A DNA stretch of 64,000 nucleotides from an uncultured Chloroflexia bacterium (GCA_963728205.1 CAVSIV010000001.1:192001-256000), one strand, 5' to 3'; positions 6,996 through 23,305 are shown, counted from the first letter of the stretch. Notes: generated by a model from the sequence alone, not told the origin. Program-made: numbers and translations.

Positions 6996-7931
6996 CTACT
7001 TGAGCGCGTCCGCGATGTTCCGCGCGTTCGTCTCCATCATCCCGATGTAGGTGTCGGCGCCCGAGCCGGGTGCGCCGAGGCTGTCGCCGTAGAGGTTCGA
7101 CACGACCTTCACGTGCGCCTCGCTCGCGAGCGTCTGCGCGAGCCGCGGGCTCAGGCTCTGCTCGGTGAAGATCGCCTTCACGTCCTGGGCACGAATCTGC
7201 GCGATGAGGTCGGTGACCTGGCCGGTGGTCGGCTCCTGGTTCGTGTTCAGGCCCTGCAGCACCGAGCCGACGTACTCCAGCCCGAAGTGGTCCGTGAAGT
7301 AGCGGAACGCGTCGTGGTCCGTGACCATCTTGCGGCCGTTCGCGGGGATCCCGTCGATGGTCGCCTGCGCCGTGCGGTCCATCGCGCGCACGCGGCTGAG
7401 GTAGTCGTCCGCGCGCGTGCCGAAGGCGGCGGCATCGGCGGGGTCGGCCCCGGCCAGCGCGTCGCGGACGGCGGGGATCAGCGCCTCGACGTTCGTCGGG
7501 TCCATCCAGTAGTGGGGGTCGGCCTCGCCGCCCTGCGTGCGCAGGTGCACGACGGTGGAAAGGTCGACGATCGGCCGCTTCCCGCCGGCGTTCTGCAGGA
7601 TGCGGTCGAGCCAGTCGTCGATCCCCGCACCGCTCTTGAAGACGACCTGCGACCGGGCCACGGCGGCGACGTCGCCGGGCGTCGGCTCGAAGTCGTGCGG
7701 GTCCTGGTTCGGCTTGACCAGCGTCGTCACGGCCGCGGCCGGGCCGGCGATCTCGCGCACGATGTCGCCGAGCTGCGTCGTCGTGGCGACGACCGTGAGC
7801 GCGGGCTTCGCCGTCGCGGGTGGGCGTGCACTGCTCCCTCCGCACGCGGCCAGCGCCAGGGCGGCTGCGGCGGACAGGAGGAGGCACGCGGAACGCCGCG
7901 GCGCTCGCGTGCTCCACGGCAGTGACGGCAT
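6996..7931 (-). CDS. Zn/Mn ABC substrate-binding lipoprotein (ZnuA/TroA family)
   Basis: DPHDFEPTP, DPHYWMDP, DHDAFRYF, LYGDSLG; lipobox LAAC. Confidence 0.92.
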   Translation of the reverse strand: MPSLPWSTRAPRRSACLLLSAAAALALAACGGSSARPPATAKPALTVVATTTQLGDIVREIAGPAAAVTTLVKPNQDPHDFEPTPGDVAAVARSQVVFKSGAGIDDWLDRILQNAGGKRPIVDLSTVVHLRTQGGEADPHYWMDPTNVEALIPAVRDALAGADPADAAAFGTRADDYLSRVRAMDRTAQATIDGIPANGRKMVTDHDAFRYFTDHFGLEYVGSVLQGLNTNQEPTTGQVTDLIAQIRAQDVKAIFTEQSLSPRLAQTLASEAHVKVVSNLYGDSLGAPGSGADTYIGMMETNARNIADALK

Positions 7932-8021
7932 CGCGGTCTCCGTTCGCACTCGAGCGCGGCGTCGGCACGGCACGGCAGTCAGCATGCCCCGGGGGCGCCG
8001 CGCGCGCATGAACGTCATCCA

Positions 8022-8111
8022 AAGCCGGCGGCAGAGATGCCGCCGACGGAAGCGCGGCGCCAGCCGCGGACTGCGTCCGCGTCCTGTCGGCGGCGTCTCT
8101 GCCGCCGCGTT
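8022..8111. repeat. REP doublet / REPIN-like element, copy 2
   Basis: cggcggcagagatgccgccgac ... gtcggcggcgtctctgccgccg. Confidence 0.8.
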
Positions 8112-14271: not shown

Positions 14272-15483
14272 TCAGGCGCTCGCGGCGCCCGCGCGGCGCG
14301 GGATCGCCACGCGCACCTCGAGCCCGCCGCCGGTCACCGGCGCCGCCGCGGCGCGCCCCTGGTGGTGCTCCGCGACCGCGCGCACGATCGACAGGCCGAG
14401 CCCGTAGCCGCCCGTCGCGCGGCTGCGCGACGCGTCGCGCCGCGCGAAGCGCTCGAACAGCCCGTCGACCTCCGCGGGCGCGATCTCGTCGCCGCTGTTC
14501 GTCACCACGACCACCGCGTTGCCGTTGTCGACCGACGTGGAGACGCGCACCCACCCGCCGGCCCGGTTGTGCGCGATCGCGTTCGTCACGAGGTTGTCGA
14601 TCATGCGCTCGAGCAGCACCCGGTCGCCCATCACCTCCACCGGCGCCAGCGCGCCGTCCACCGTCACGCCCGCCGCGCCCGCCGCGTCCGCGTGACTCGC
14701 CATCGTCCGCCGCGCGACCTCCGACAGGTCGACGGCGACGGCCGGCCCCGGCGGGCTGTCCGCGCGCGCCAGCGTGAGCAGCGCGTCGATCAGGGCCTGC
14801 GCGCGGCCCAGCGCGCGCCGCACAACCTCCGCCATGTGCTCGATCTCGTCGGGGGGAACGTCGTCGTGGCCGACCGTCACGTCGAGCTCGGTGCGGATCA
14901 CCGTGAGCGGCGTGCGCAGCTCGTGCGCCGCGTTCGCGACGAACGAGCGCTGCGCCTCGAACGCGCGCTGGAGGCGGTCGAGCATCACGTCGAACTGGTC
15001 GGCCAGCTCCTTGAGCTCGTCATCGGGGCCCTGCAGTGCCACGCGCTCGTGCAGCCGCTCGTCCGAGATGCGCCGCACGGTGTCGGTCATCTCCGAGATC
15101 GGGCGCAGCATGCGGCCGGCCATCAGCCATCCGAGCCCCAGCGACGGCACGGCGAGCAGCGCCAGCAGCACCGTCGACTGCACGAGCAGCTGCCGCAACG
15201 TGTCCGTCTTGATCTGCTGCGCCGCGCTGTCGAGGACGTCGCCCAGGCGAAACGTCGCCGGCGGCGCGTTGTCGCGCGGGAACTGGGCGCGGCGTCCGCC
15301 CGTGAACGCCTCGACCGGCACGCCGAGCCGCGCGGCGGCCTGCTCGCGGAACGCGGTCGGGTCGGAGGGGAACATCTCGCGCACGAGCAGGAAGTTGATC
15401 GCGAGCAGCGTGAAGCCCGTCAGCAGGAAGAGCCCGCCGTACCAGAGGGTGAGGCGCAGCCGGATCGTCCGGCGCAGCGGCAT
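14272..15483 (-). CDS. HAMP-domain sensor histidine kinase
   Basis: RLRLTLWY TM, GPDDELKELAD HAMP, AAHELRTPL, NLVTNAI, GYGLGLSIV; TGATG overlap with regulator. Confidence 0.9.
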   Translation of the reverse strand: MPLRRTIRLRLTLWYGGLFLLTGFTLLAINFLLVREMFPSDPTAFREQAAARLGVPVEAFTGGRRAQFPRDNAPPATFRLGDVLDSAAQQIKTDTLRQLLVQSTVLLALLAVPSLGLGWLMAGRMLRPISEMTDTVRRISDERLHERVALQGPDDELKELADQFDVMLDRLQRAFEAQRSFVANAAHELRTPLTVIRTELDVTVGHDDVPPDEIEHMAEVVRRALGRAQALIDALLTLARADSPPGPAVAVDLSEVARRTMASHADAAGAAGVTVDGALAPVEVMGDRVLLERMIDNLVTNAIAHNRAGGWVRVSTSVDNGNAVVVVTNSGDEIAPAEVDGLFERFARRDASRSRATGGYGLGLSIVRAVAEHHQGRAAAAPVTGGGLEVRVAIPRRAGAASA

Positions 15484-16136
15484 CAGATGCGGTACCCGGA
15501 CCCGACCACGGTCTCGACCACGGGCGGATTGCCGAGCCGGCGCCGCAGCGTCATCACCACCACGCGCACCGCGTTCGTGAACGGATCCGTGTGCTCGTCC
15601 CACGCGCGCTCGAGCAGCTCCTCGGTCGAGACCACGCGTCCGTCGGCGCGCAGCAGGATCTCGAGCACCGCGAACTCCTTCGGCGTGAGCCCCACCTCGG
15701 TGCCGTCGCGCGTCACGGTGCGCAGCGCGGGGTCGAGCCGGATGCCGGCGCGTTCGAGGACCGGTGCTCGCGTCTCGGCGCCGCGGCGCACCAGCGCGCG
15801 CAGCCGCGCACGAAGCTCGTCGAAGTCGAATGGCTTCGGGAGGTAGTCGTCCGCGCCGAGGTCGAGGCCCTCGACGCGATCCTCGACCGCACCGGCCGCG
15901 GTCAGCATGAGGATGCGCGCGTGCGAGCCGGACTCGTGGAGGCGCCGGCAGACCTCGTCGCCGTGCAGCACCGGGAGGTTGCGATCGAGGAGCACGACGT
16001 CGTAGTCGCTCACCTCGGCCTTCTCGAGCGCGGTGCCTCCGTCGAAGGCGACGTCTACGGCCCAGCCGTCGCGCCGCAGCCCGCGCGACAGCGCGTCCGC
16101 GAGGTCGCGTTCGTCCTCGACGATGAGCAGGCGCAT
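15483..16136 (-). CDS. OmpR-family response regulator (CutR-like)
   Basis: MRLLIVEDE, LDRNLP, GADDYLPKPF, AWDEHTDPFTNAVRV. Confidence 0.92.
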   Translation of the reverse strand: MRLLIVEDERDLADALSRGLRRDGWAVDVAFDGGTALEKAEVSDYDVVLLDRNLPVLHGDEVCRRLHESGSHARILMLTAAGAVEDRVEGLDLGADDYLPKPFDFDELRARLRALVRRGAETRAPVLERAGIRLDPALRTVTRDGTEVGLTPKEFAVLEILLRADGRVVSTEELLERAWDEHTDPFTNAVRVVVMTLRRRLGNPPVVETVVGSGYRI

Positions 16137-16313
16137 GGTGGGCTCCCGGCCTCGGCTGGTCGCGCCAGCGTATCGCCACCGAAATAAGGCGCGAGTAAGG
16201 CGAGGCTCCGCGGCGAGGCGCTCCGCGGCGAACCCCCTCGCGTGAGCGAGCTGAGATGCCGCGCGGTGCGTGGGGAGCGTTCTCCGGGCGGTCTCGCGGA
16301 CGGCGTGGCCTGC

Positions 16314-17885
16314 TCAGCCCGCTGACGCGGGGCCGTTCGCCGCCGGGCCGGCCCACCGCAGCACCGGGTGGCGTGCCGCCGTCGCCTCGTCCAGGCGGCC
16401 GATCGGGGCGGTGTGCGGCGCGGTGCGCACCAGCTCCGGGTCGCGCGCGGCCTCCTCGGCGATCGCGCGCATCGCCGACGCGAACGCCTCCACGGCCTCG
16501 CGCGACTCCGTCTCCGTCGGCTCGATCATCAGCGCCTCTTCGACGATCAGCGGGAAGTAGACCGTCGGCGGGTGGATGCCATAGTCGATCAGGCGCTTTG
16601 CGATGTCGTAGGTCCGCACGTCCGAGTCGCGGCGCTGGCGCGAGCCCGAGAACACCACCTCGTGCATCACCGCTCGCGGGTAGGGGAGCGCGTACGCGTC
16701 CTCCAGCAGCGCGCGCAGGTAGTTCGCGTTGAGCACCGCGTTCGCCGACGTCGCGCGCAGCCCGGCGAGCCCGAGCGTGCGGATGTAGGCGTAGGCCCGT
16801 AGCAGCACGCCGACGCTGCCGTGGAACTGCTGCAGCTGGCCGATCGAGTCCGCCGGGCGCGTGAACGCGAACCGCTCGTCTTCGTCGGCCGCCGCGCCGT
16901 CGCTTGCCTCGCCGCCCGTGCGCACCACCACCGGCGCCGGCAGGTGCGGCGCGAGCGCGTCGCTGCAGCACACCGGACCCGCGCCGGGCCCCCCGCCGCC
17001 GTGCGGCGTCGCGAATGTCTTGTGCAGGTTGAGGTGCACGACGTCGAACCCGAGGTCGCCGAACCGCACGCGCCCGAGCAGTGCGTTGAGGTTCGCGCCG
17101 TCGCCGTAGAGCAGCGCGCCGTCCGCGTGCACGCGCTCCGCGATCTCCTCGATGCGCGGCTCCCACAGCCCGAGCGTGCTCGGCAGCGTCACCATCAGCG
17201 CCGCCACCGTGCCGTCGAGCTCGCGCTCCAGCGTCGCCAGCTCGATCGCGCCGTCCGGCCCGCTCGGCAGCTCGGTCACCGCGAAGCCGGCCATCGCCGC
17301 GCTCGCCGGGTTCGTGCCGTGCGCGCTGTCGGGGACGAGCACCCGCCGCCGCTGCTCCAGCTCGCCGCGACGTTCGAGCGCGCGCTTCACCATCAGCATG
17401 CCGGCGAGCTCGCCCTGCGCGCCGGCCGCCGGCGCGAGGCTCACCGCCGGCAGCCCCGTGATCGCGGCGAGGCACGACTGCAACTCGAAGAGCACGCGCA
17501 GCGTGCCCTGCACCGTGTCGAGCGGAGCCAGCGGGTGCCCGTCGGCGAACCCCGGCAGCGACGCCACCAGGTCGTCGACCTTCGGGTTGTACTTCATCGT
17601 GCACGAGCCCAGCGGGTAGGTGCCGGTGTCGACGCCGAAGTTGCGGCGCGAGAGCGCGTGGTAGTAGCGCACGAGCTCGCCCTGGCTGAGCGACGGCAGC
17701 CGCACCGACTCGCGCAGCAGCCCGGCCGACGGCAGCGGCGCCGGCGGCCCCTCCCAGCGCTCGACCGCCACCGCGTGTCGCCCCGGCTCCCCGCGGTCGA
17801 ACGCGAGCCGCGCGCCAAAGTCCTCCTCGCGGAAGCCACCGCCGCCGCGGACGGGTTCGACGGGCCAGCGCTCCGGCGTGGTCAT
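16314..17885 (-). CDS. gcvPB: Glycine dehydrogenase (decarboxylating) subunit 2
   Basis: YPLGSCTMKYNP, SAHGTNPASA, HLNLHKTFATPHGGGGPG (PLP Lys), EALMIEPTETES. Confidence 0.95.
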   Translation of the reverse strand: MTTPERWPVEPVRGGGGFREEDFGARLAFDRGEPGRHAVAVERWEGPPAPLPSAGLLRESVRLPSLSQGELVRYYHALSRRNFGVDTGTYPLGSCTMKYNPKVDDLVASLPGFADGHPLAPLDTVQGTLRVLFELQSCLAAITGLPAVSLAPAAGAQGELAGMLMVKRALERRGELEQRRRVLVPDSAHGTNPASAAMAGFAVTELPSGPDGAIELATLERELDGTVAALMVTLPSTLGLWEPRIEEIAERVHADGALLYGDGANLNALLGRVRFGDLGFDVVHLNLHKTFATPHGGGGPGAGPVCCSDALAPHLPAPVVVRTGGEASDGAAADEDERFAFTRPADSIGQLQQFHGSVGVLLRAYAYIRTLGLAGLRATSANAVLNANYLRALLEDAYALPYPRAVMHEVVFSGSRQRRDSDVRTYDIAKRLIDYGIHPPTVYFPLIVEEALMIEPTETESREAVEAFASAMRAIAEEAARDPELVRTAPHTAPIGRLDEATAARHPVLRWAGPAANGPASAG

Positions 17886-17964
17886 GCGGTTACCTCCCGC
17901 GACTGCCCGCGCGGCACCCCCTGGCGACGCGGCGATTGGGTCGCGCGCACGCCCGCGGCAGGGC

Positions 17965-19386
17965 TCACGCCTGCCGCTCGCCGTCGTCGGCGACGCCGTC
18001 CGCGATCTCGCGCAGCGCCGCGATCAGCGCGTCCACGTGCTCCGGCGGGGTCGCCTCCGTCACGCACACGAGCATCGCGTCGCGCGCCTCCGGCTCCGGG
18101 CGGCCCGCGAGCGCGAGCCCGCCCTCGATGCCGCGCGCGCCCAGCGCACGCCCGAGCACTTCCGCCGGCACCGGCCCCCGCACGAGAAACTCCTGGAACC
18201 ATGGCCCGCGCTCGACGACCGCGTAGCCCGGCAGCGCCGCGATCCGCGCCGCCGCGTCGTGCGCGCGCTGGTAACAGAGCTCCGCCGCCGCGCGCAGTCC
18301 CACCGGTCCCAGCGCCTGCACCGAGACCGTGAACGCGAGCGCGACCAGCGACTGCCCCGTCGAGAAGTTGGACGTCGCGCGCTCGCGCCGGATGAACTGC
18401 TCGCGCGCCTGCAGCGTCAGCACGTAGCCGGCCCGCGGCTCGCCGACAGCGTCGCGTGCGTCGCCGGCTCCGGCCGACCCATGCACCTCGCGCGTCCGCC
18501 CCACGATGCGCCCCGGCATCTGCCGCAGAAACTGCTCGCGCGCGGCGAAGATGCCGAGCGACGGACCGCCGAGCCCCGGCGGCCCGGCGAGGTCGCGCCC
18601 CTCGCCCGTCACCAGGTCGACACCCGCGTCGCCCGGCGCCCGCAGCATCCCGAGCGCGAACGGGTCGGCGACCGCGACGCACAGCGCACCGGCGGCGTGC
18701 GCCGCGGCGGCTACCGGCTCGAGGTCAAGGATCGCGCCGAGGAAGTCCGGCTGCTGCACGACCACGCACGCGTGCTCGTCGGTCACGCGATCGACCCCGG
18801 CGACCAGGTCGACCCGCAGCCCGCCGCCGAACGCGTACGTCCGCACCACGTCCACGACGCCCGGGTGTACCGGCTCGAGCAGCGCCACCGCGCGCCGCCC
18901 CGTCACGCGCGACGCCAGCAGGCACGCCTCCGCCGTCGCGCTCGCGCCGTCGTACATCCCGGTGTTCGACACGTCCATGCCGGTCAGCTCGCACACCGTC
19001 GACTGGTACTCGAACGCGGCCTGCAGGGTGCCCTGGCTCACTTCGGGCTGGTACGGCGTGTACGACGTCACGAACTCCGACCGCGCCGTCAGCGCGCCCG
19101 TGACCGCCGGCACCGCGCGGCGGTACGCGCCGGCGCCGAGGAACGACGGCCGCCCGCCGGACGTGTTCTCGCCGGCTCGCGTGCTCAACAGCCGGATCAG
19201 CGGCGCCTCCGCCAGCGCCGGCGGCAGCGCGATCACCGGGTCGCGATGTGCCGGCGGCAGCGCGTCGAACAGCGCCTCGACGCTCGCCAGCCCGAGCCGC
19301 GCGAGCATGACCGCGCGGTCGGCGTCGGTGTTCGGGATGTATGGCGTAGGCGCCGGGGCGGCCGCCCTCGTGTCGTCGTCGGGCAT
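17965..19386 (-). CDS. gcvPA: Glycine dehydrogenase (decarboxylating) subunit 1
   Basis: YIPNT, FLGAGAY, YTPYQPEVSQGTLQ, TLQAREQFIRRERATSN. Confidence 0.95.
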   Translation of the reverse strand: MPDDDTRAAAPAPTPYIPNTDADRAVMLARLGLASVEALFDALPPAHRDPVIALPPALAEAPLIRLLSTRAGENTSGGRPSFLGAGAYRRAVPAVTGALTARSEFVTSYTPYQPEVSQGTLQAAFEYQSTVCELTGMDVSNTGMYDGASATAEACLLASRVTGRRAVALLEPVHPGVVDVVRTYAFGGGLRVDLVAGVDRVTDEHACVVVQQPDFLGAILDLEPVAAAAHAAGALCVAVADPFALGMLRAPGDAGVDLVTGEGRDLAGPPGLGGPSLGIFAAREQFLRQMPGRIVGRTREVHGSAGAGDARDAVGEPRAGYVLTLQAREQFIRRERATSNFSTGQSLVALAFTVSVQALGPVGLRAAAELCYQRAHDAAARIAALPGYAVVERGPWFQEFLVRGPVPAEVLGRALGARGIEGGLALAGRPEPEARDAMLVCVTEATPPEHVDALIAALREIADGVADDGERQA

Positions 19387-19391
19387 CGCGG

Positions 19392-19781
19392 CTACTGCTC
19401 GTGCGCGGCGAGCCGCGCGCGGTAGGCGTCCGCCGTCAGCAGCGCGTCGACCTCCGCCGGCTCGCTCACCCGCACGCGGATCATCCAGGCCTCGTCGAAC
19501 GGCGACGCGTTCACGCGCTCCGGCGCGTCCGTCAGCGCCTCGTTACGCGCGACCACCTCGCCGCTCACCGGCGCGAAGAGGTCCGACACCGCCTTCACCG
19601 ACTCGATCACGCCGAACGCCTCGCCCTGCTTCAACGCGCGCCCGACCGCCGGCAGCTCGACGTAGACGACATCGCCGAGCTGCTCCTGTGCGAAGTCGGT
19701 GATGCCGACGGTGGCCTCGCCGTCGGCGAGGCGCACCCATTCGTCCTCGGTCGTGTAGCGCAACTCCGAGGGGACCTCCAC
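19392..19781 (-). CDS. gcvH: Glycine cleavage system H protein (lipoyl carrier)
   Basis: GITDFAQEQLGDVVYVELP, IESVKAVSD (lipoyl Lys). Confidence 0.95.
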   Translation of the reverse strand: MEVPSELRYTTEDEWVRLADGEATVGITDFAQEQLGDVVYVELPAVGRALKQGEAFGVIESVKAVSDLFAPVSGEVVARNEALTDAPERVNASPFDEAWMIRVRVSEPAEVDALLTADAYRARLAAHEQ

Positions 19782-19808
19782 GTAGCGGCCTTTCCGTTGC
19801 CGCCGGGA

Positions 19809-20942
19809 TCATTCCGAGCGGCGGATGAAGGGGCGGGGCACGACCTCGGCGTCGACGTCGCGCCCGTGGATCTCGATCGCGAGCCGCGTGCCCGGCGCGG
19901 CGAGACCTGCGGGCAGGTACGCCATCGCGATGCCCACGCGGAGCGTGGGGCTGAACGCGCCGCTCGTGAGCGTAGCAACCGCGCGCGGCTCGCTCTCGTC
20001 GCCGGTCGCGTCTCCCGGCGCGTGCACCGGGTAGCCGGCCCGCGGCACGCCGCGGTCGAGCAGCCGCAGGCACGCGAGCCGCCGCTCGGGCGCGCGCGCG
20101 GCAGCGGCGGCGAGCGCGTCGCGACCCGTGAACTCGGCGCCGTCCTCGAGCGTGACCGCCCAGCCGAGCCCGGCCTCGTAGGGGCTCGTGTCGGGCGTGA
20201 TGTCGTGGCCGTGCAGCGGCAGCGCGGCCTCCAGCCGCAGCGTATCGCGTGCCCCCAGCCCACACGGGACGACCCCGGCGGCCAGGCACGCGTCCCACAG
20301 CGCCGCCCCGCGCTCCGCGTCGAGGATGCACTCCGCGCCGTCCTCGCCCGTGTAGCCGGTGCGCCCGACCAGCACCGTCGCGCCGCGCCAGGCGAGCTCG
20401 GTGCAGCGCCGCGGCGCGAGCTCCGCGGCGAGGTCGACCCCGAGCACGTCGCGCAGCCGCGCGAGCGCGGCCGGTCCCTGCACCGCGAGCATCACGGTCT
20501 CGCCGCCGACGTCGCGCATCGCCGCTCCCGGCGCCCGATCCACCGACGCCCGCACGCGCGCCGCGTCGGCCTCCGCGTTCGCGGCGTTGTGCACGATGAG
20601 CCAGCGGTCGGCGTCGACGCGATAGACGAAGACGTCGTCGGCGATGCCGCCGTCGTCGGTCGCGTAGAGCGAGTAGTGGGCGCGGCCGGGGTGCATCCGC
20701 GTCACGTCGTAGGTCGTCACCGCGCGGATGCGCGTGCCGGCGTCGGGCCCCTCAATCCGCACGCGGCCCATGTGCGAGACGTCGAAGACGCCGGCGGCCT
20801 CGCGCACGGCGGCGTGCTCGGCGAGGATGCCGCCCGCGTACTGCAGCGGCATCTCCCAGCCGGCGAACGGCGCGAGCCGCGCGCCCGCCGCGACGTGCCG
20901 CTCGTGGAGCGGCAGGCGTCGCAGCGCTCGTGCCTCCCTCAT
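19809..20942 (-). CDS. gcvT: Glycine cleavage system aminomethyltransferase T
   Basis: FAGWEMPLQY, FDVSHMG, RTGYTGEDG, GLGARDTLRLEA. Confidence 0.95.
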   Translation of the reverse strand: MREARALRRLPLHERHVAAGARLAPFAGWEMPLQYAGGILAEHAAVREAAGVFDVSHMGRVRIEGPDAGTRIRAVTTYDVTRMHPGRAHYSLYATDDGGIADDVFVYRVDADRWLIVHNAANAEADAARVRASVDRAPGAAMRDVGGETVMLAVQGPAALARLRDVLGVDLAAELAPRRCTELAWRGATVLVGRTGYTGEDGAECILDAERGAALWDACLAAGVVPCGLGARDTLRLEAALPLHGHDITPDTSPYEAGLGWAVTLEDGAEFTGRDALAAAAARAPERRLACLRLLDRGVPRAGYPVHAPGDATGDESEPRAVATLTSGAFSPTLRVGIAMAYLPAGLAAPGTRLAIEIHGRDVDAEVVPRPFIRRSE

Positions 20943-20961
20943 CGCCGCCGCCCGCCCGCGC

Positions 20962-21438
20962 TCACGCGTCGGCGACGTCGGCCGACCACGTGACGTCGAT
21001 CGCGTCCTTCACGCTCTCGTGCGCCGGGCAGCCGCGTGCGTGCACGGCCAGCGCGCGGTCGGCGGTCTCGCGCTGCGCGGCCGGCACCCGCAGGTGGTAC
21101 GTCACGTGGATCCTGGTGATGCGGATCGTGGCGCCGGTCGGGCCCTCGATCGTCCCGTCGACGTCGGCGCTGTAGCTGGAGCGGTCGAACTCGACCTTGC
21201 GGGCGGCCAGGGCCCCCGCGAGCGTGCCGAACATTCAGCCGCCGACCGCGGCCACGATGTGGTCGAGCGTCGCCGCGACCGGCGGGCCCTCCTTCGCGCC
21301 GTAGTACTCGCGCAGCGCGCCCTGCACCCCGTACGCCACGGGCTCGGCCACCTCGCCCATGTAGGCGTGCCGCACGCCGCCCTCGAACACGAGGCGGTTC
21401 TTCGAGATGTACCGGAAGTCGTCGGCCACGGGCTCCAA
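20962..21438 (-). CDS. OsmC/Ohr-fold protein with in-frame UGA (putative selenocysteine), 158 aa
   Basis: ORFs 21235..21438 and 20962..21234 are contiguous and in frame; reads LDHIVAAVGG-UGA-MFGTL and later ARGCPAHES, matching the two OsmC Cys positions. Confidence 0.8.
21191..21230 (-). promoter_or_regulatory. Candidate bacterial SECIS hairpin
   Basis: Just 3' of the UGA: UCGGC..GCGGG-GGC-(CCUG)-GCC-G-CCCGC..GUCGA stem-loop. Confidence 0.55.
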
Positions 21439-21564
21439 CTTTCGTTGCGGCGCAACCGCGCGCCGCCGACCAGCCTACGCGTCGCGGCGGATGCCGCGTC
21501 GGAGGCGTGAGCCTGCGGCTAGTATTCGCGCGACACCTCGCTGAGGGGCCGGGGGAGATCGCGC

Positions 21565-22254
21565 ATGAACGTCGATCATTTCGTCGCGGTGGTCGACTCG
21601 CTCGCTCACCTGTTGTCGGTAATGGTGTGGCCGGCCGTCGCCGTCTTCCTGCTTGTCCGCTTCTCCGGCCCGCTGAACGGGTTCCTCAGCAGCCTCGGCG
21701 AACTGTCGTTCAAGGGCGGTGGGATCGAGGCCACCGTGCGTCGGCAGCAGATCGAGGCCGCCGCGTCGCTGGGCGTCGCCGCCGGCTCGCGGGCCACGCA
21801 GGCGAACGACCCCGCGACGCCGCGACCAGACGAGATCGCGGAGAGCGTCTCCCGCTCCGTCACGCGTGAGAGCGTTCGGGGCGCCGCAGGTTCGCGGGTG
21901 CTCTGGGTCGACGACCATCCCGACAACAACATCCACGAGCGGCGCGCGCTGGAGTCTCTCGGCGCGCGCGTCACGACCCTGACTTCGACGGACGACGCCC
22001 TCGCCGCGCTCGCCGGTGGCGGGTACGACCTCGTGATCTCCGACATGGGGCGGTCGCCGGATCCTCGCGCCGGGTACACGCTCCTCGACGCGCTGCGCAG
22101 GCGGGGCGACCGCACTCCGTTCGTCGTCTACGCAGGATCCGCCACCGACGAGCAGCGGAAGGAGGCGGCGGAGCACGGCGCGTTCGGCACGACGAACCGT
22201 GCCGATGAACTGCTGGCGCTCGCGCTGCGGGCGATGCGACGACGGCTCGGGTAG
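21565..22254 (+). CDS. Membrane-anchored receiver (REC) domain protein
   Basis: N-terminal TM (WPAVAVFLLVRF), then VLWVDDHPDNN, YDLVISDMGR; no output domain. Confidence 0.8.
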   Translation: MNVDHFVAVVDSLAHLLSVMVWPAVAVFLLVRFSGPLNGFLSSLGELSFKGGGIEATVRRQQIEAAASLGVAAGSRATQANDPATPRPDEIAESVSRSVTRESVRGAAGSRVLWVDDHPDNNIHERRALESLGARVTTLTSTDDALAALAGGGYDLVISDMGRSPDPRAGYTLLDALRRRGDRTPFVVYAGSATDEQRKEAAEHGAFGTTNRADELLALALRAMRRRLG

Positions 22255-22258
22255 GCGA

Positions 22259-23305
22259 CTAGCGTGATGCTCCGTCCGGGCCGCTCTCGCCCCGCAGCAG
22301 CGGCCAGTACAGCGGCAGGCTCACCGCGAACGGCACGAAGTAGTAGACGACCCGGAACAGGATCGCCGCGAGCGCCGCGTGCTCGACCGACACGCCGAGC
22401 ACGGCCAGCGTCGCCGTGATCGACCCCTCCTGCACGCCGAGTCCGCCCGGCACGAACGACGCGACCCCCGCGTTCACCCCGACCGCGAACGCCGTCAGCG
22501 CCGCGGCGAACCCTGCCCCGGCGCCCACGGCGGCGAGACAGCACCAGAACGCCACGAGCGTCACGCCCCAGTCCGCGACGATCAGCAGCGCCGGCGCCAG
22601 GCCCGCCGCCGGTCGCGCGCGCACCGCCGTCGCCGCGCGGTCGAGGCCCGCGCCGAGATCGTCGAGCGCGGCCGCCGCGTGCCGCGCTCGACCCGCGCCG
22701 AGCGCCACCCGCGTGCCCCAGCGGCCGGCGCGCAGCAGCGCGCCCCGGGCGCGGCGCGACCACAGCGCCGCGGTCAGCGCCAGCACGGCGACCGCCGACA
22801 GCGCCCCCGCCACCAGCGCCGCCCCCGCGCCGGCGCCCGAGAGCGGGTGCACCGCCGCGAGCAGCAGCAGTCCCGCCGGCAGCAGCGCGAGCATCGCCAC
22901 GGTGTTCAGGTACGACTGCACGACGGTCATCGCGAGCACGCTTCCCGGCGACTCGCCGTGCTCGCGCAGCAGCGCCGTGCGCACCGAGTAGCCGGCCACC
23001 CCGCCCAGCGACAGCACGTGGTTGAGCGCGAACGACACGTAGCTCGCGCGGAACAGCGGCCCCGTCGGCGCGCGCACACCCACGATGCGCCCCACCGCCA
23101 CCATCCCCGCGCTCAGCGCGAGGTACGAGCCGGCCGTCGCCGTCAGCGCCGGCACGACCAGCGTCCACCGCGTCTGCCCGAGCAGCCGCCCGACCTGCCG
23201 CCAGTCGAGCACGACCACCAGCGCCGCCGCGAGCACGAGCACCGCGATCGCCGACACCAGCGCGGCGTGGCCGCGCGCGGGCGGACGCTCGGCGGCGCTC
23301 GCCAT
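22259..23305 (-). CDS. Lysylphosphatidylglycerol synthase TM / flippase-like domain protein
   Basis: Polytopic; ALNHVLSLGGVAG, SFVPGGLGVQEG, AAILFRVVYYFVP. Confidence 0.85.
   Translation of the reverse strand: MASAAERPPARGHAALVSAIAVLVLAAALVVVLDWRQVGRLLGQTRWTLVVPALTATAGSYLALSAGMVAVGRIVGVRAPTGPLFRASYVSFALNHVLSLGGVAGYSVRTALLREHGESPGSVLAMTVVQSYLNTVAMLALLPAGLLLLAAVHPLSGAGAGAALVAGALSAVAVLALTAALWSRRARGALLRAGRWGTRVALGAGRARHAAAALDDLGAGLDRAATAVRARPAAGLAPALLIVADWGVTLVAFWCCLAAVGAGAGFAAALTAFAVGVNAGVASFVPGGLGVQEGSITATLAVLGVSVEHAALAAILFRVVYYFVPFAVSLPLYWPLLRGESGPDGASR

Follow-up and report, generated by a model that had tools for sequence, protein, structure and literature searches.

Ohr was reportedly characterised by Cussiol et al. 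in 2010 as a lipoyl-dependent peroxidase, and Nyvltova et al. are said to have described in 2016 a hydrogenosomal OsmC of Trichomonas vaginalis together with an incomplete glycine decarboxylase complex. According to passages of a review, the L and H proteins of Trichomonas pass electrons from lipoate on to OsmC (PMC7946386), while passages of a preprint place GcvH_1 (Hden_1299) of Hyphomicrobium denitrificans beside OsmC (Hden_1301) (bioRxiv 10.64898/2026.10.01.755906). OsmC-like selenoproteins were predicted in 2005 from three Sargasso sequences, under COG1765 and with the motif UxxT (passages of Zhang, Fomenko & Gladyshev, PMC1088965). The family is also listed in passages of a 2026 review (PMC13188914), in whose text 'glycine cleavage', 'GcvH' and 'lipoyl' are absent. 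A literature search by title and abstract, with subscription journals outside its coverage, returned no paper joining an OsmC that contains selenocysteine (Sec) to GcvH. Here we describe a locus in which the genes for such proteins share one gene row. It lies on 64,000 nucleotides of DNA from an uncultured Chloroflexia bacterium (GCA_963728205.1 CAVSIV010000001.1:192001-256000), a stretch that we call the window and in which positions are counted from the first letter. An OsmC-like gene with an in-frame TGA heads the glycine cleavage genes gcvT, gcvH, gcvPA and gcvPB. It almost certainly encodes a selenoprotein of an already known kind that annotation has missed; its link to GcvH, for which the evidence is suggestive, is the new part.

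An OsmC-family frame is interrupted by a single TGA

A sequence-only reading of the window had joined two short open reading frames, 21235..21438 and 20962..21234, into one across a TGA, and had predicted that standard annotation would split the gene. Both proposals hold. A single frame runs along the minus strand from 21438 to 20962 with TGA 21235-21237 as its sole internal stop, and the read-through product (...TLDHIVAAVGG-U-MFGTLAGAL...VHARGCPAHESVKDAI..., which contains HARGCPAHES) matches the Pfam family OsmC (PF02566) over residues 59-151 with 44.8 bits against a cut-off of 27.5. A six-frame search of the genome with PF02566 recovered the gene at 36.5 bits with one TGA inside it. The features of the gene are as follows.

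20962..21438, minus strand: predicted OsmC-like selenoprotein gene, open from TTG 21438, with terminal stop TGA 20964-20962
21235..21237, minus strand: in-frame TGA predicted to be read as Sec, residue 68 when numbering starts at TTG 21438, aligned with the first catalytic Cys of OsmC
21028..21030, minus strand: TGC codon of the second catalytic Cys, C137, in the motif GCPAHES (Cys in 37/38 homologues)

Because homologues begin M-[AS]-[DE]-x-F-x-Y-[IV]-S, translation is likely to start at GTG 21429 rather than at TTG 21438, which would give 155 residues including Sec.

Public gene calls either fragment this gene or read W at the codon. The existing annotation of the window gene consists of the 90-residue C-terminal piece only (record P0003). 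A protein word search gave 395 matches at E <= 0.001; among the 120 listed, 5 covered more than 70% of the query, and nearly all of the remainder were about 90 residues long and began at the Met just after the TGA. Likewise, an exhaustive search of representative proteins returned 426 at E <= 0.001, many of which end at residue 67 or begin at 69. Seven of 14 aligned database homologues span the U column, with W (4), S, R or G and in no case Cys. Five public 'full-length' records (P0002, P0008, P0065, P0078 and P0128) have W at this column, and we suspect that the W comes from gene calls made under a code in which TGA is Trp.

To place the TGA among relatives, one genome per species was scanned with two sequence patterns, and the best 80 of 165 relatives were used as related loci. 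Both patterns lie outside the U codon, yet pick out the close subfamily. Every one of the 80 aligns across the stop from about residue 4 to 157, at 60-78% identity, with TGA at the U column and both flanks conserved; the joined frame is therefore more than chance. The carriers are metagenome-assembled genomes (MAGs) labelled as Chloroflexota (Dehalococcoidia, Ktedonobacteria), Bacillota, Methylomirabilota/Rokuibacteriota, Actinomycetota and Acidobacteriota. Two of the loci (L086 and L088) come from genomes flagged as unpublished; they are inside the tallies, with no claim resting on them alone. Of 401 Chloroflexota genomes drawn evenly, 20 contain a match at E <= 1e-10, and in 19 of these (about 5% of the sample) the match carries an in-frame TGA; with its presence in other phyla, the selenoprotein is widespread. 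At the 18 sampled loci that remain when the window genome is excluded, TGA stands at the U column in all 18, and no Cys form was found at E <= 1e-10 among the 401 genomes.

Cysteine does occupy the column in more distant proteins. From the 150 matches listed, 38 distant full-length homologues were chosen whose match spans the U column (26-55% identity). Cys stands there in 33 of them, and the other five read W, S, S, D and, in a garbled row, P; at the C137 column, 37 of the 38 have Cys. A profile of the homologues aligns the U column with the first Cys of the OsmC proteins 1ukk (Thermus thermophilus) and 1qwi (Escherichia coli), and C137 with the Cys of GCPVS in both. By residue count from the alignment the 1qwi residue is Cys59, which we take to be the peroxidatic residue of E. 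coli OsmC. These alignments agree with the sequence-only reading, which had put Sec at the peroxidatic position and had placed the second catalytic Cys at the C-P motif. Together with the conservation of the codon, they lead us to regard the gene as a genuine Sec gene with high confidence.

Three further observations concern the family at large. Thirteen of the 18 sampled loci form a second, more distant Sec group, with 33-43% identity and the motif AG-U-LTGT...CPV (L135-L145, L151, L152). The record AP024096.1 ('Ktedonobacteria bacterium brp13 DNA, complete genome') holds two copies of the gene about 20 kb apart, both with TGA (L062, L072); brp13 may be culturable. In another genome, C- and N-terminal halves lie about 2 kb apart on one strand and are free of stops (G499:C29:5471-5707 and 7877-8065), and may be a disrupted or rearranged copy.

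The genome encodes selenocysteine machinery

The source genome is a MAG of 4.1 Mb with 72% G+C in 6 contigs, 89% complete and with 5.6% contamination; its relatives are Dehalococcoidia MAGs. A search for selA, selB, selC and selD, which the sequence-only reading had called for, found all four. The tRNA-Sec (G000:C6:1292600-1292692) scores 73.8 bits in Rfam against a cut-off of 47, and Aragorn agrees; a second Aragorn tRNA-SeC candidate (G000:C1:604129-604220) had no Rfam tRNA-Sec match at the gathering score and was set aside. The selB match scores 310 bits, selA 408 bits (G000:C2:332097-333424) and selD 364 bits (G000:C4:155115-156053). The selD gene has an in-frame TGA of its own (...LASCAG-TGA-AGKMG...) and, as read from its sequence, looks Sec-containing, which would make it a second selenoprotein gene of this genome.

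RNA structure is enriched just downstream of the UGA

A bacterial selenocysteine insertion sequence (SECIS) would be expected as a stem-loop shortly after the codon, and single-sequence folding gives a candidate in the window.

21199..21219, minus strand: GC-rich hairpin, candidate bacterial SECIS, 18-38 nucleotides after the U of the UGA, loop CCUG, from a single-sequence fold

Single-sequence folds likewise give a GC-rich hairpin about 17-38 nucleotides past the UGA in most loci. As a control, the codons of 81 genes were shuffled synonymously within each gene, 200 times for the main 39-nucleotide interval and 60 times for a scan of positions. In the interval starting at +9 after the UGA the mean z was -1.71 relative to the shuffles, with z < -2 in 42% of genes. 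In the scan, offset 0 had a mean z of -1.94, as against -0.39 to +0.12 at eleven other offsets. Across the family, excess structure is thus specific to the position just 3' of the UGA; since the genes are related, z is not to be read as a probability.

The protein has the OsmC/Ohr fold and redox pair

An AlphaFold2 model built from a 39-row alignment has a mean predicted local distance difference test (pLDDT) score of 95.3. Foldseek found 61 matches to it in the PDB at E <= 0.001, and the top matches are OsmC/Ohr chains only (2onf, 1lql, 4mh4, 1nye and 6ebg, the last being Ohr with dihydrolipoamide), at template modelling (TM) scores of 0.62-0.83. Asp59 of the window protein, which is Asp in 36/38 homologues, aligns with Glu48 of 1ukk, presumably the catalytic Glu. 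U68 and C137 are 69 residues apart; in the OsmC/Ohr superfamily the catalytic Cys pair is about 60 residues apart (passages of PMC5384416).

The gene heads a glycine cleavage row, and the linkage recurs in one clade

The gene ends 19 nucleotides before gcvT and is co-oriented with gcvT-H-PA-PB, as the sequence-only reading had it; the coordinates and Pfam matches bear this out.

20943..20961, minus strand: gap of 19 nucleotides from the end of the OsmC-like gene to gcvT, in which nothing resembling a terminator was found
19809..20942, minus strand: gcvT, aminomethyltransferase, Pfam GCV_T 281 bits, ATG at 20942
19392..19781, minus strand: gcvH, lipoyl carrier H protein, Pfam GCV_H 145 bits, lipoyl-lysine motif ESVKAV
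17965..19386, minus strand: gcvPA, P-protein subunit 1, Pfam GDC-P 307 bits
16314..17885, minus strand: gcvPB, P-protein subunit 2, Pfam GcvP2_C 88 bits
21439..21564, no strand: divergent intergenic region of 126 nucleotides upstream of the OsmC-like gene, presumed promoter region

From the 19-nucleotide gap, the OsmC-like gene is very probably co-transcribed with gcvT-H-PA-PB. When sequencing runs were searched for matching words, no RNA run was listed, and the best DNA runs shared at most 0.07 of the words. A scan of 16000-21800 for promoters and terminators found none, and an Rfam search (E <= 1, 15000-23000) found no glycine riboswitch or known RNA upstream, its two matches elsewhere being at chance level. 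Also in line with the sequence-only reading, no L protein gene (lpdA) lies in the gcv row; next downstream are a response regulator (15483-16136) and then a histidine kinase. Upstream, beyond the 126-nucleotide gap, a receiver-domain gene (21565..22254) is divergent on the plus strand. Its frame encodes 229 residues, of which only 112-208 are receiver domain; the first 111 residues are without a Pfam match, and the frame may in fact start later.

The position at the head of gcvTHPAPB is real, and the linkage recurs in relatives in several arrangements. Within 6 kb of the OsmC-like gene, gcv genes were found in 14/80 related loci, arranged in five ways. A lone gcvH directly follows the gene in eight (L022, L023, L028, L046, L048, L052, L056 and L078) and lies upstream of it, in reversed order, in L030. 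As in the window, gcvT-H-PA-PB directly follows the gene in L029, whereas one other gene intervenes before gcvT-H-PA in L025; in L039 and L047 gcvT-H-PA-PB lies about 1.6 kb upstream, and in L035 a gcvPB piece lies 4.8 kb upstream. The gene interposed before gcvT in L025 (6461-7288) and L017 (759-1490, minus strand) encodes a lipoate-ligase A/B catalytic domain. L016 of the same-genus genome G002 and L025 are one and the same place, and L017 belongs to a same-family genome; the L025 gene had no homologue in the window genome by tblastn at E <= 1e-3. In a tree of 82 proteins, every linked row falls inside one Dehalococcoidia clade of 38 rows (support of 95 in the Shimodaira-Hasegawa-like approximate likelihood ratio test, SH-aLRT). 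Of the two features whose conservation in relatives the sequence-only reading had wanted checked, the UGA stands in full (80/80 and 18/18), but gcv adjacency is seen in 14/80 related and 0/18 sampled loci.

Nine genomes without a P-protein match have a lone gcvH beside the gene

The nine loci with a lone gcvH come from genomes that look like cases of an 'incomplete glycine cleavage system'. No GDC-P match was found in any of the nine, and the gcvT cut-off was reached in none of the five tested. Among 79 genomes searched, P was missing in 14, namely these nine and those of L032, L083, L094, L096 and L099. A lone gcvH next to the gene occurs in none of the 65 genomes that do match P, and in one synteny group gcvH lies beside the gene exactly in the genomes that have no P-protein match. 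Two of the lone-gcvH genomes are records titled as chromosomes, and for these two incompleteness is an unlikely cause. In 8/8 lone-gcvH genomes searched, with that of L078 excluded, the neighbouring gcvH has no second full GCV_H match at its side, although one of the eight contains an extra sub-threshold GCV_H fragment.

The lipoyl-lysine motif ES[VA]KAV is kept in 9/9 of the lone GcvH proteins. Five of them group together in a clade (SH-aLRT 98) that does not include the operon GcvH from a genome with a close OsmC-like relative (L055/L123), and the flanking genes differ among the four pairs scanned (L022, L023, L028 and L030). In the window genome gcvH is also the sole GCV_H match, and there is one further OsmC-family paralogue.

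That a lone gcvH is kept next to the gene where P (and, where tested, T) is missing is the clearest hint in the data, and a suggestive one, to the electron donor; it makes lipoyl-GcvH the best candidate reductant. The sequence-only reading had coupled glycine oxidation to peroxide reduction, a proposal that finds no support in genomes lacking P and T (T tested in five). If anything, these genomes point to a route from L to H to OsmC.

A proposed mechanism

These results suggest a model in which UGA 21235-21237 would be decoded as Sec with the aid of the stem-loop just downstream. The Sec would attack a hydroperoxide and become a selenenic acid, which C137 would resolve to a selenenylsulfide. 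A dithiol would then re-reduce the selenenylsulfide, the favoured candidate being the dihydrolipoyl arm of GcvH, itself charged by lipoamide dehydrogenase (Lpd) and NADH or, in the window genome, perhaps by glycine cleavage. We put the probability of the whole explanation, a Sec-containing OsmC-like peroxidase that is co-transcribed with gcv and has dihydrolipoyl-GcvH as its favoured reductant, at roughly 0.6. Its parts differ in strength. The protein is probably a hydroperoxide reductase. We would give GcvH slightly less than an even chance of being the physiological reductant, and think it unlikely that glycine oxidation is a meaningful source of electrons. That dihydrolipoyl-GcvH feeds the enzyme, as the sequence-only reading proposed, is thus upheld in part, by the neighbourhood in one clade (16/38 rows) and the lone gcvH of nine P-less genomes, and weakened by the unlinked loci (66/80 and 18/18) and the other lipoyl donors discussed below.

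Alternative explanations

Several results weigh against this model, beginning with the codon itself. The selA gene lies in two frames that overlap at about C2:333053-333095, with an N-terminal part ending ...RGSRYAHLE. Either an assembly indel or a real frameshift would produce this, and in the latter case Sec could not be made. Since the source is a MAG, the gene might in principle stem from one organism and the Sec machinery from another. RNAalifold found no consensus pairs in 72 nucleotides around the UGA of 81 sequences, which we attribute to a hairpin register that differs between clades, and the window hairpin taken alone has a z of only -0.45, with 62/200 shuffles at least as stable, because any synonymous version folds well at this G+C content. 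Were the TGA a true stop, the locus would hold a broken gene, or else an N-terminal gene of about 64 residues and a 90-residue C-terminal gene starting from ATG 21234. Gene callers do give the 90-residue piece, the ATG follows the TGA immediately, and selA is apparently frameshifted in the assembly. Nevertheless we find this reading scarcely credible, since the TGA and both halves are in frame in 98/98 loci from several phyla, distant homologues have Cys at the column, the 90-residue piece would be missing half of the fold as well as the first catalytic residue, and the RNA structure past the TGA is position-specific. A different objection grants the selenoprotein and disputes the peroxidase: the protein could belong to a third OsmC-superfamily group that acts on the lipoyl arm or in some other selenosulfide exchange, for example by oxidising, reducing or repairing lipoyl- or dihydrolipoyl-GcvH. 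It scores 18.4 bits against the OsmC model TIGR03562 (cut-off 85.8), and 25.1 bits against NF041052 (OsmC_like_Se, OsmC-related (seleno)protein; cut-off 95) when the window protein is scanned, and no Ohr model is among the matches listed in an NCBIfam scan at E <= 1. By these profile scores it is a superfamily member that belongs to neither the Ohr nor the OsmC subfamily proper, nor to the curated Sec family. It has Asp in place of Glu48 of 1ukk, no conserved Arg corresponding to the catalytic Arg of Ohr/OsmC was located, and a lipoate-ligase-domain gene is a neighbour in L025 and L017. We consider this objection improbable, because the protein shares its fold and its pair of redox residues with the peroxidases, and Sec in place of the peroxidatic Cys is usual in peroxidases. 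Passages of PMC5384416 supply an argument to each side: they describe 'Ohr-like' proteins that are without the Arg and Glu required for peroxidase activity and await characterisation, but also the T. vaginalis protein TvOsmC, Ohr-like and belonging to neither the Ohr nor the OsmC subfamily, with described peroxidase activity.

The remaining points concern GcvH. A genuine Sec-containing OsmC-like peroxidase might be recycled, in the way described for Ohr, by any lipoylated E2 with Lpd, or by thioredoxin, its gcv position being functionally meaningless; adjacency would then be the synteny of a single clade, and the lone gcvH a remnant that stayed behind after deletion of gcvT and gcvP and was kept for lipoyl relay to E2. 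Linked rows make up 16/38 of the one clade and 0/44 outside it, with at least six changes of state. No gcv gene lies within 6 kb in 66/80 related loci, nor within about 4 kb in the 18/18 evenly sampled Chloroflexota loci. No neighbour is universally conserved either: the biggest clusters (CoA-transferase, RibD_C, aminotransferase and others) occur in at most 20/80 loci and follow kinship. Other lipoyl donors are at hand, with four E2 genes in the window genome and two lpdA above the cut-off, each adjoining an E2 gene, and with lpdA and an E2 gene in 5/5 lone-gcvH genomes tested, where GcvH may be kept for lipoyl relay. The linkage could be inherited synteny with later deletions. Yet there are at least five arrangements, and the gcvH-then-OsmC order of L030 is impossible by simple deletion from OsmC-gcvT-gcvH-gcvP. 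The flanks of the pairs differ, and in one synteny group gcvH sits beside the gene exactly where the P-protein match is missing; the lone GcvH proteins of that group cluster by themselves (SH-aLRT 98), and the operon GcvH of a sister genome falls outside the cluster. In addition, a lipoate-ligase-domain gene is interposed in two relatives. On balance we regard a meaningless gcv position as rather unlikely. The link to GcvH, confined to one clade and drawn from gene order, is suggestive, with lipoyl relay and inherited synteny as live alternatives to GcvH as the reductant.

Significance and comparison with known systems

We tentatively raise the possibility, which we think less probable than not by some way, that in Dehalococcoidia the Sec-containing OsmC-like protein and GcvH belong together as a dedicated module of two genes, a lipoyl-dependent selenoperoxidase. 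If so, where gcv is complete, as in the window, the peroxidase at the head of the operon could re-oxidise dihydrolipoyl-H directly with peroxide, bypassing the L protein; where gcvP and gcvT are lost, the H protein would be kept only as electron carrier of the peroxidase, charged by Lpd and NADH. Such a module would be a bacterial, selenium-using counterpart of the Trichomonas hydrogenosome system. Natural reductants are known for a minority of OsmC-superfamily proteins, and lipoyl-GcvH with Lpd and NADH is a concrete candidate. It would carry a mechanism of a protist organelle over into bacteria and to an enzyme with Sec, and would explain why some bacteria retain an H protein when other glycine cleavage components are gone.

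The predicted OsmC-like selenoprotein family shares with the window protein the PF02566 superfamily, a UGA for Sec at the redox Cys and a stem-loop after it, and both are known from prediction. Its motif is UxxT, whereas that of the window protein is U-M-[FY]-G-T, and since the latter falls below the NF041052 cut-off (25.1 versus 95 bits) it would belong to another subfamily. The OsmC proteins of E. coli and T. thermophilus (1qwi/1nye and 1ukk) resemble it in fold (TM 0.62-0.73) and in the alignment of both redox residues. They have Cys where it has Sec, however, at an identity of about 17-20%, and the window protein differs further in having Asp for Glu48 of 1ukk, a longer N-terminal part and a TIGR03562 score of 18.4 versus 85.8. 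With Ohr (6ebg and 6ebd, both with dihydrolipoamide) it shares the fold and the two-residue redox pair, and by analogy the dihydrolipoyl reductant, which for the window protein is our proposal; it differs in its subfamily and in having Sec.

Two described systems are comparable in their association with GcvH. The locus of H. denitrificans is likened to the window by gene order; Sec is not mentioned for its OsmC in the passages of the preprint, according to which the GcvH-like protein Hden_1299 is, unlike that of the window, an extra paralogue beside a classical GcvH. The T. vaginalis system, as set out in passages of the review, is that of a eukaryotic organelle, with a Cys enzyme and biochemical demonstration, whereas ours is bacterial, has Sec and is drawn from gene order; the window genome, moreover, has a complete gcvTHP set. 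In the nine lone-gcvH genomes, by contrast, the gene content is like that described for T. vaginalis, where OsmC is fed via H and L while P and T are missing.

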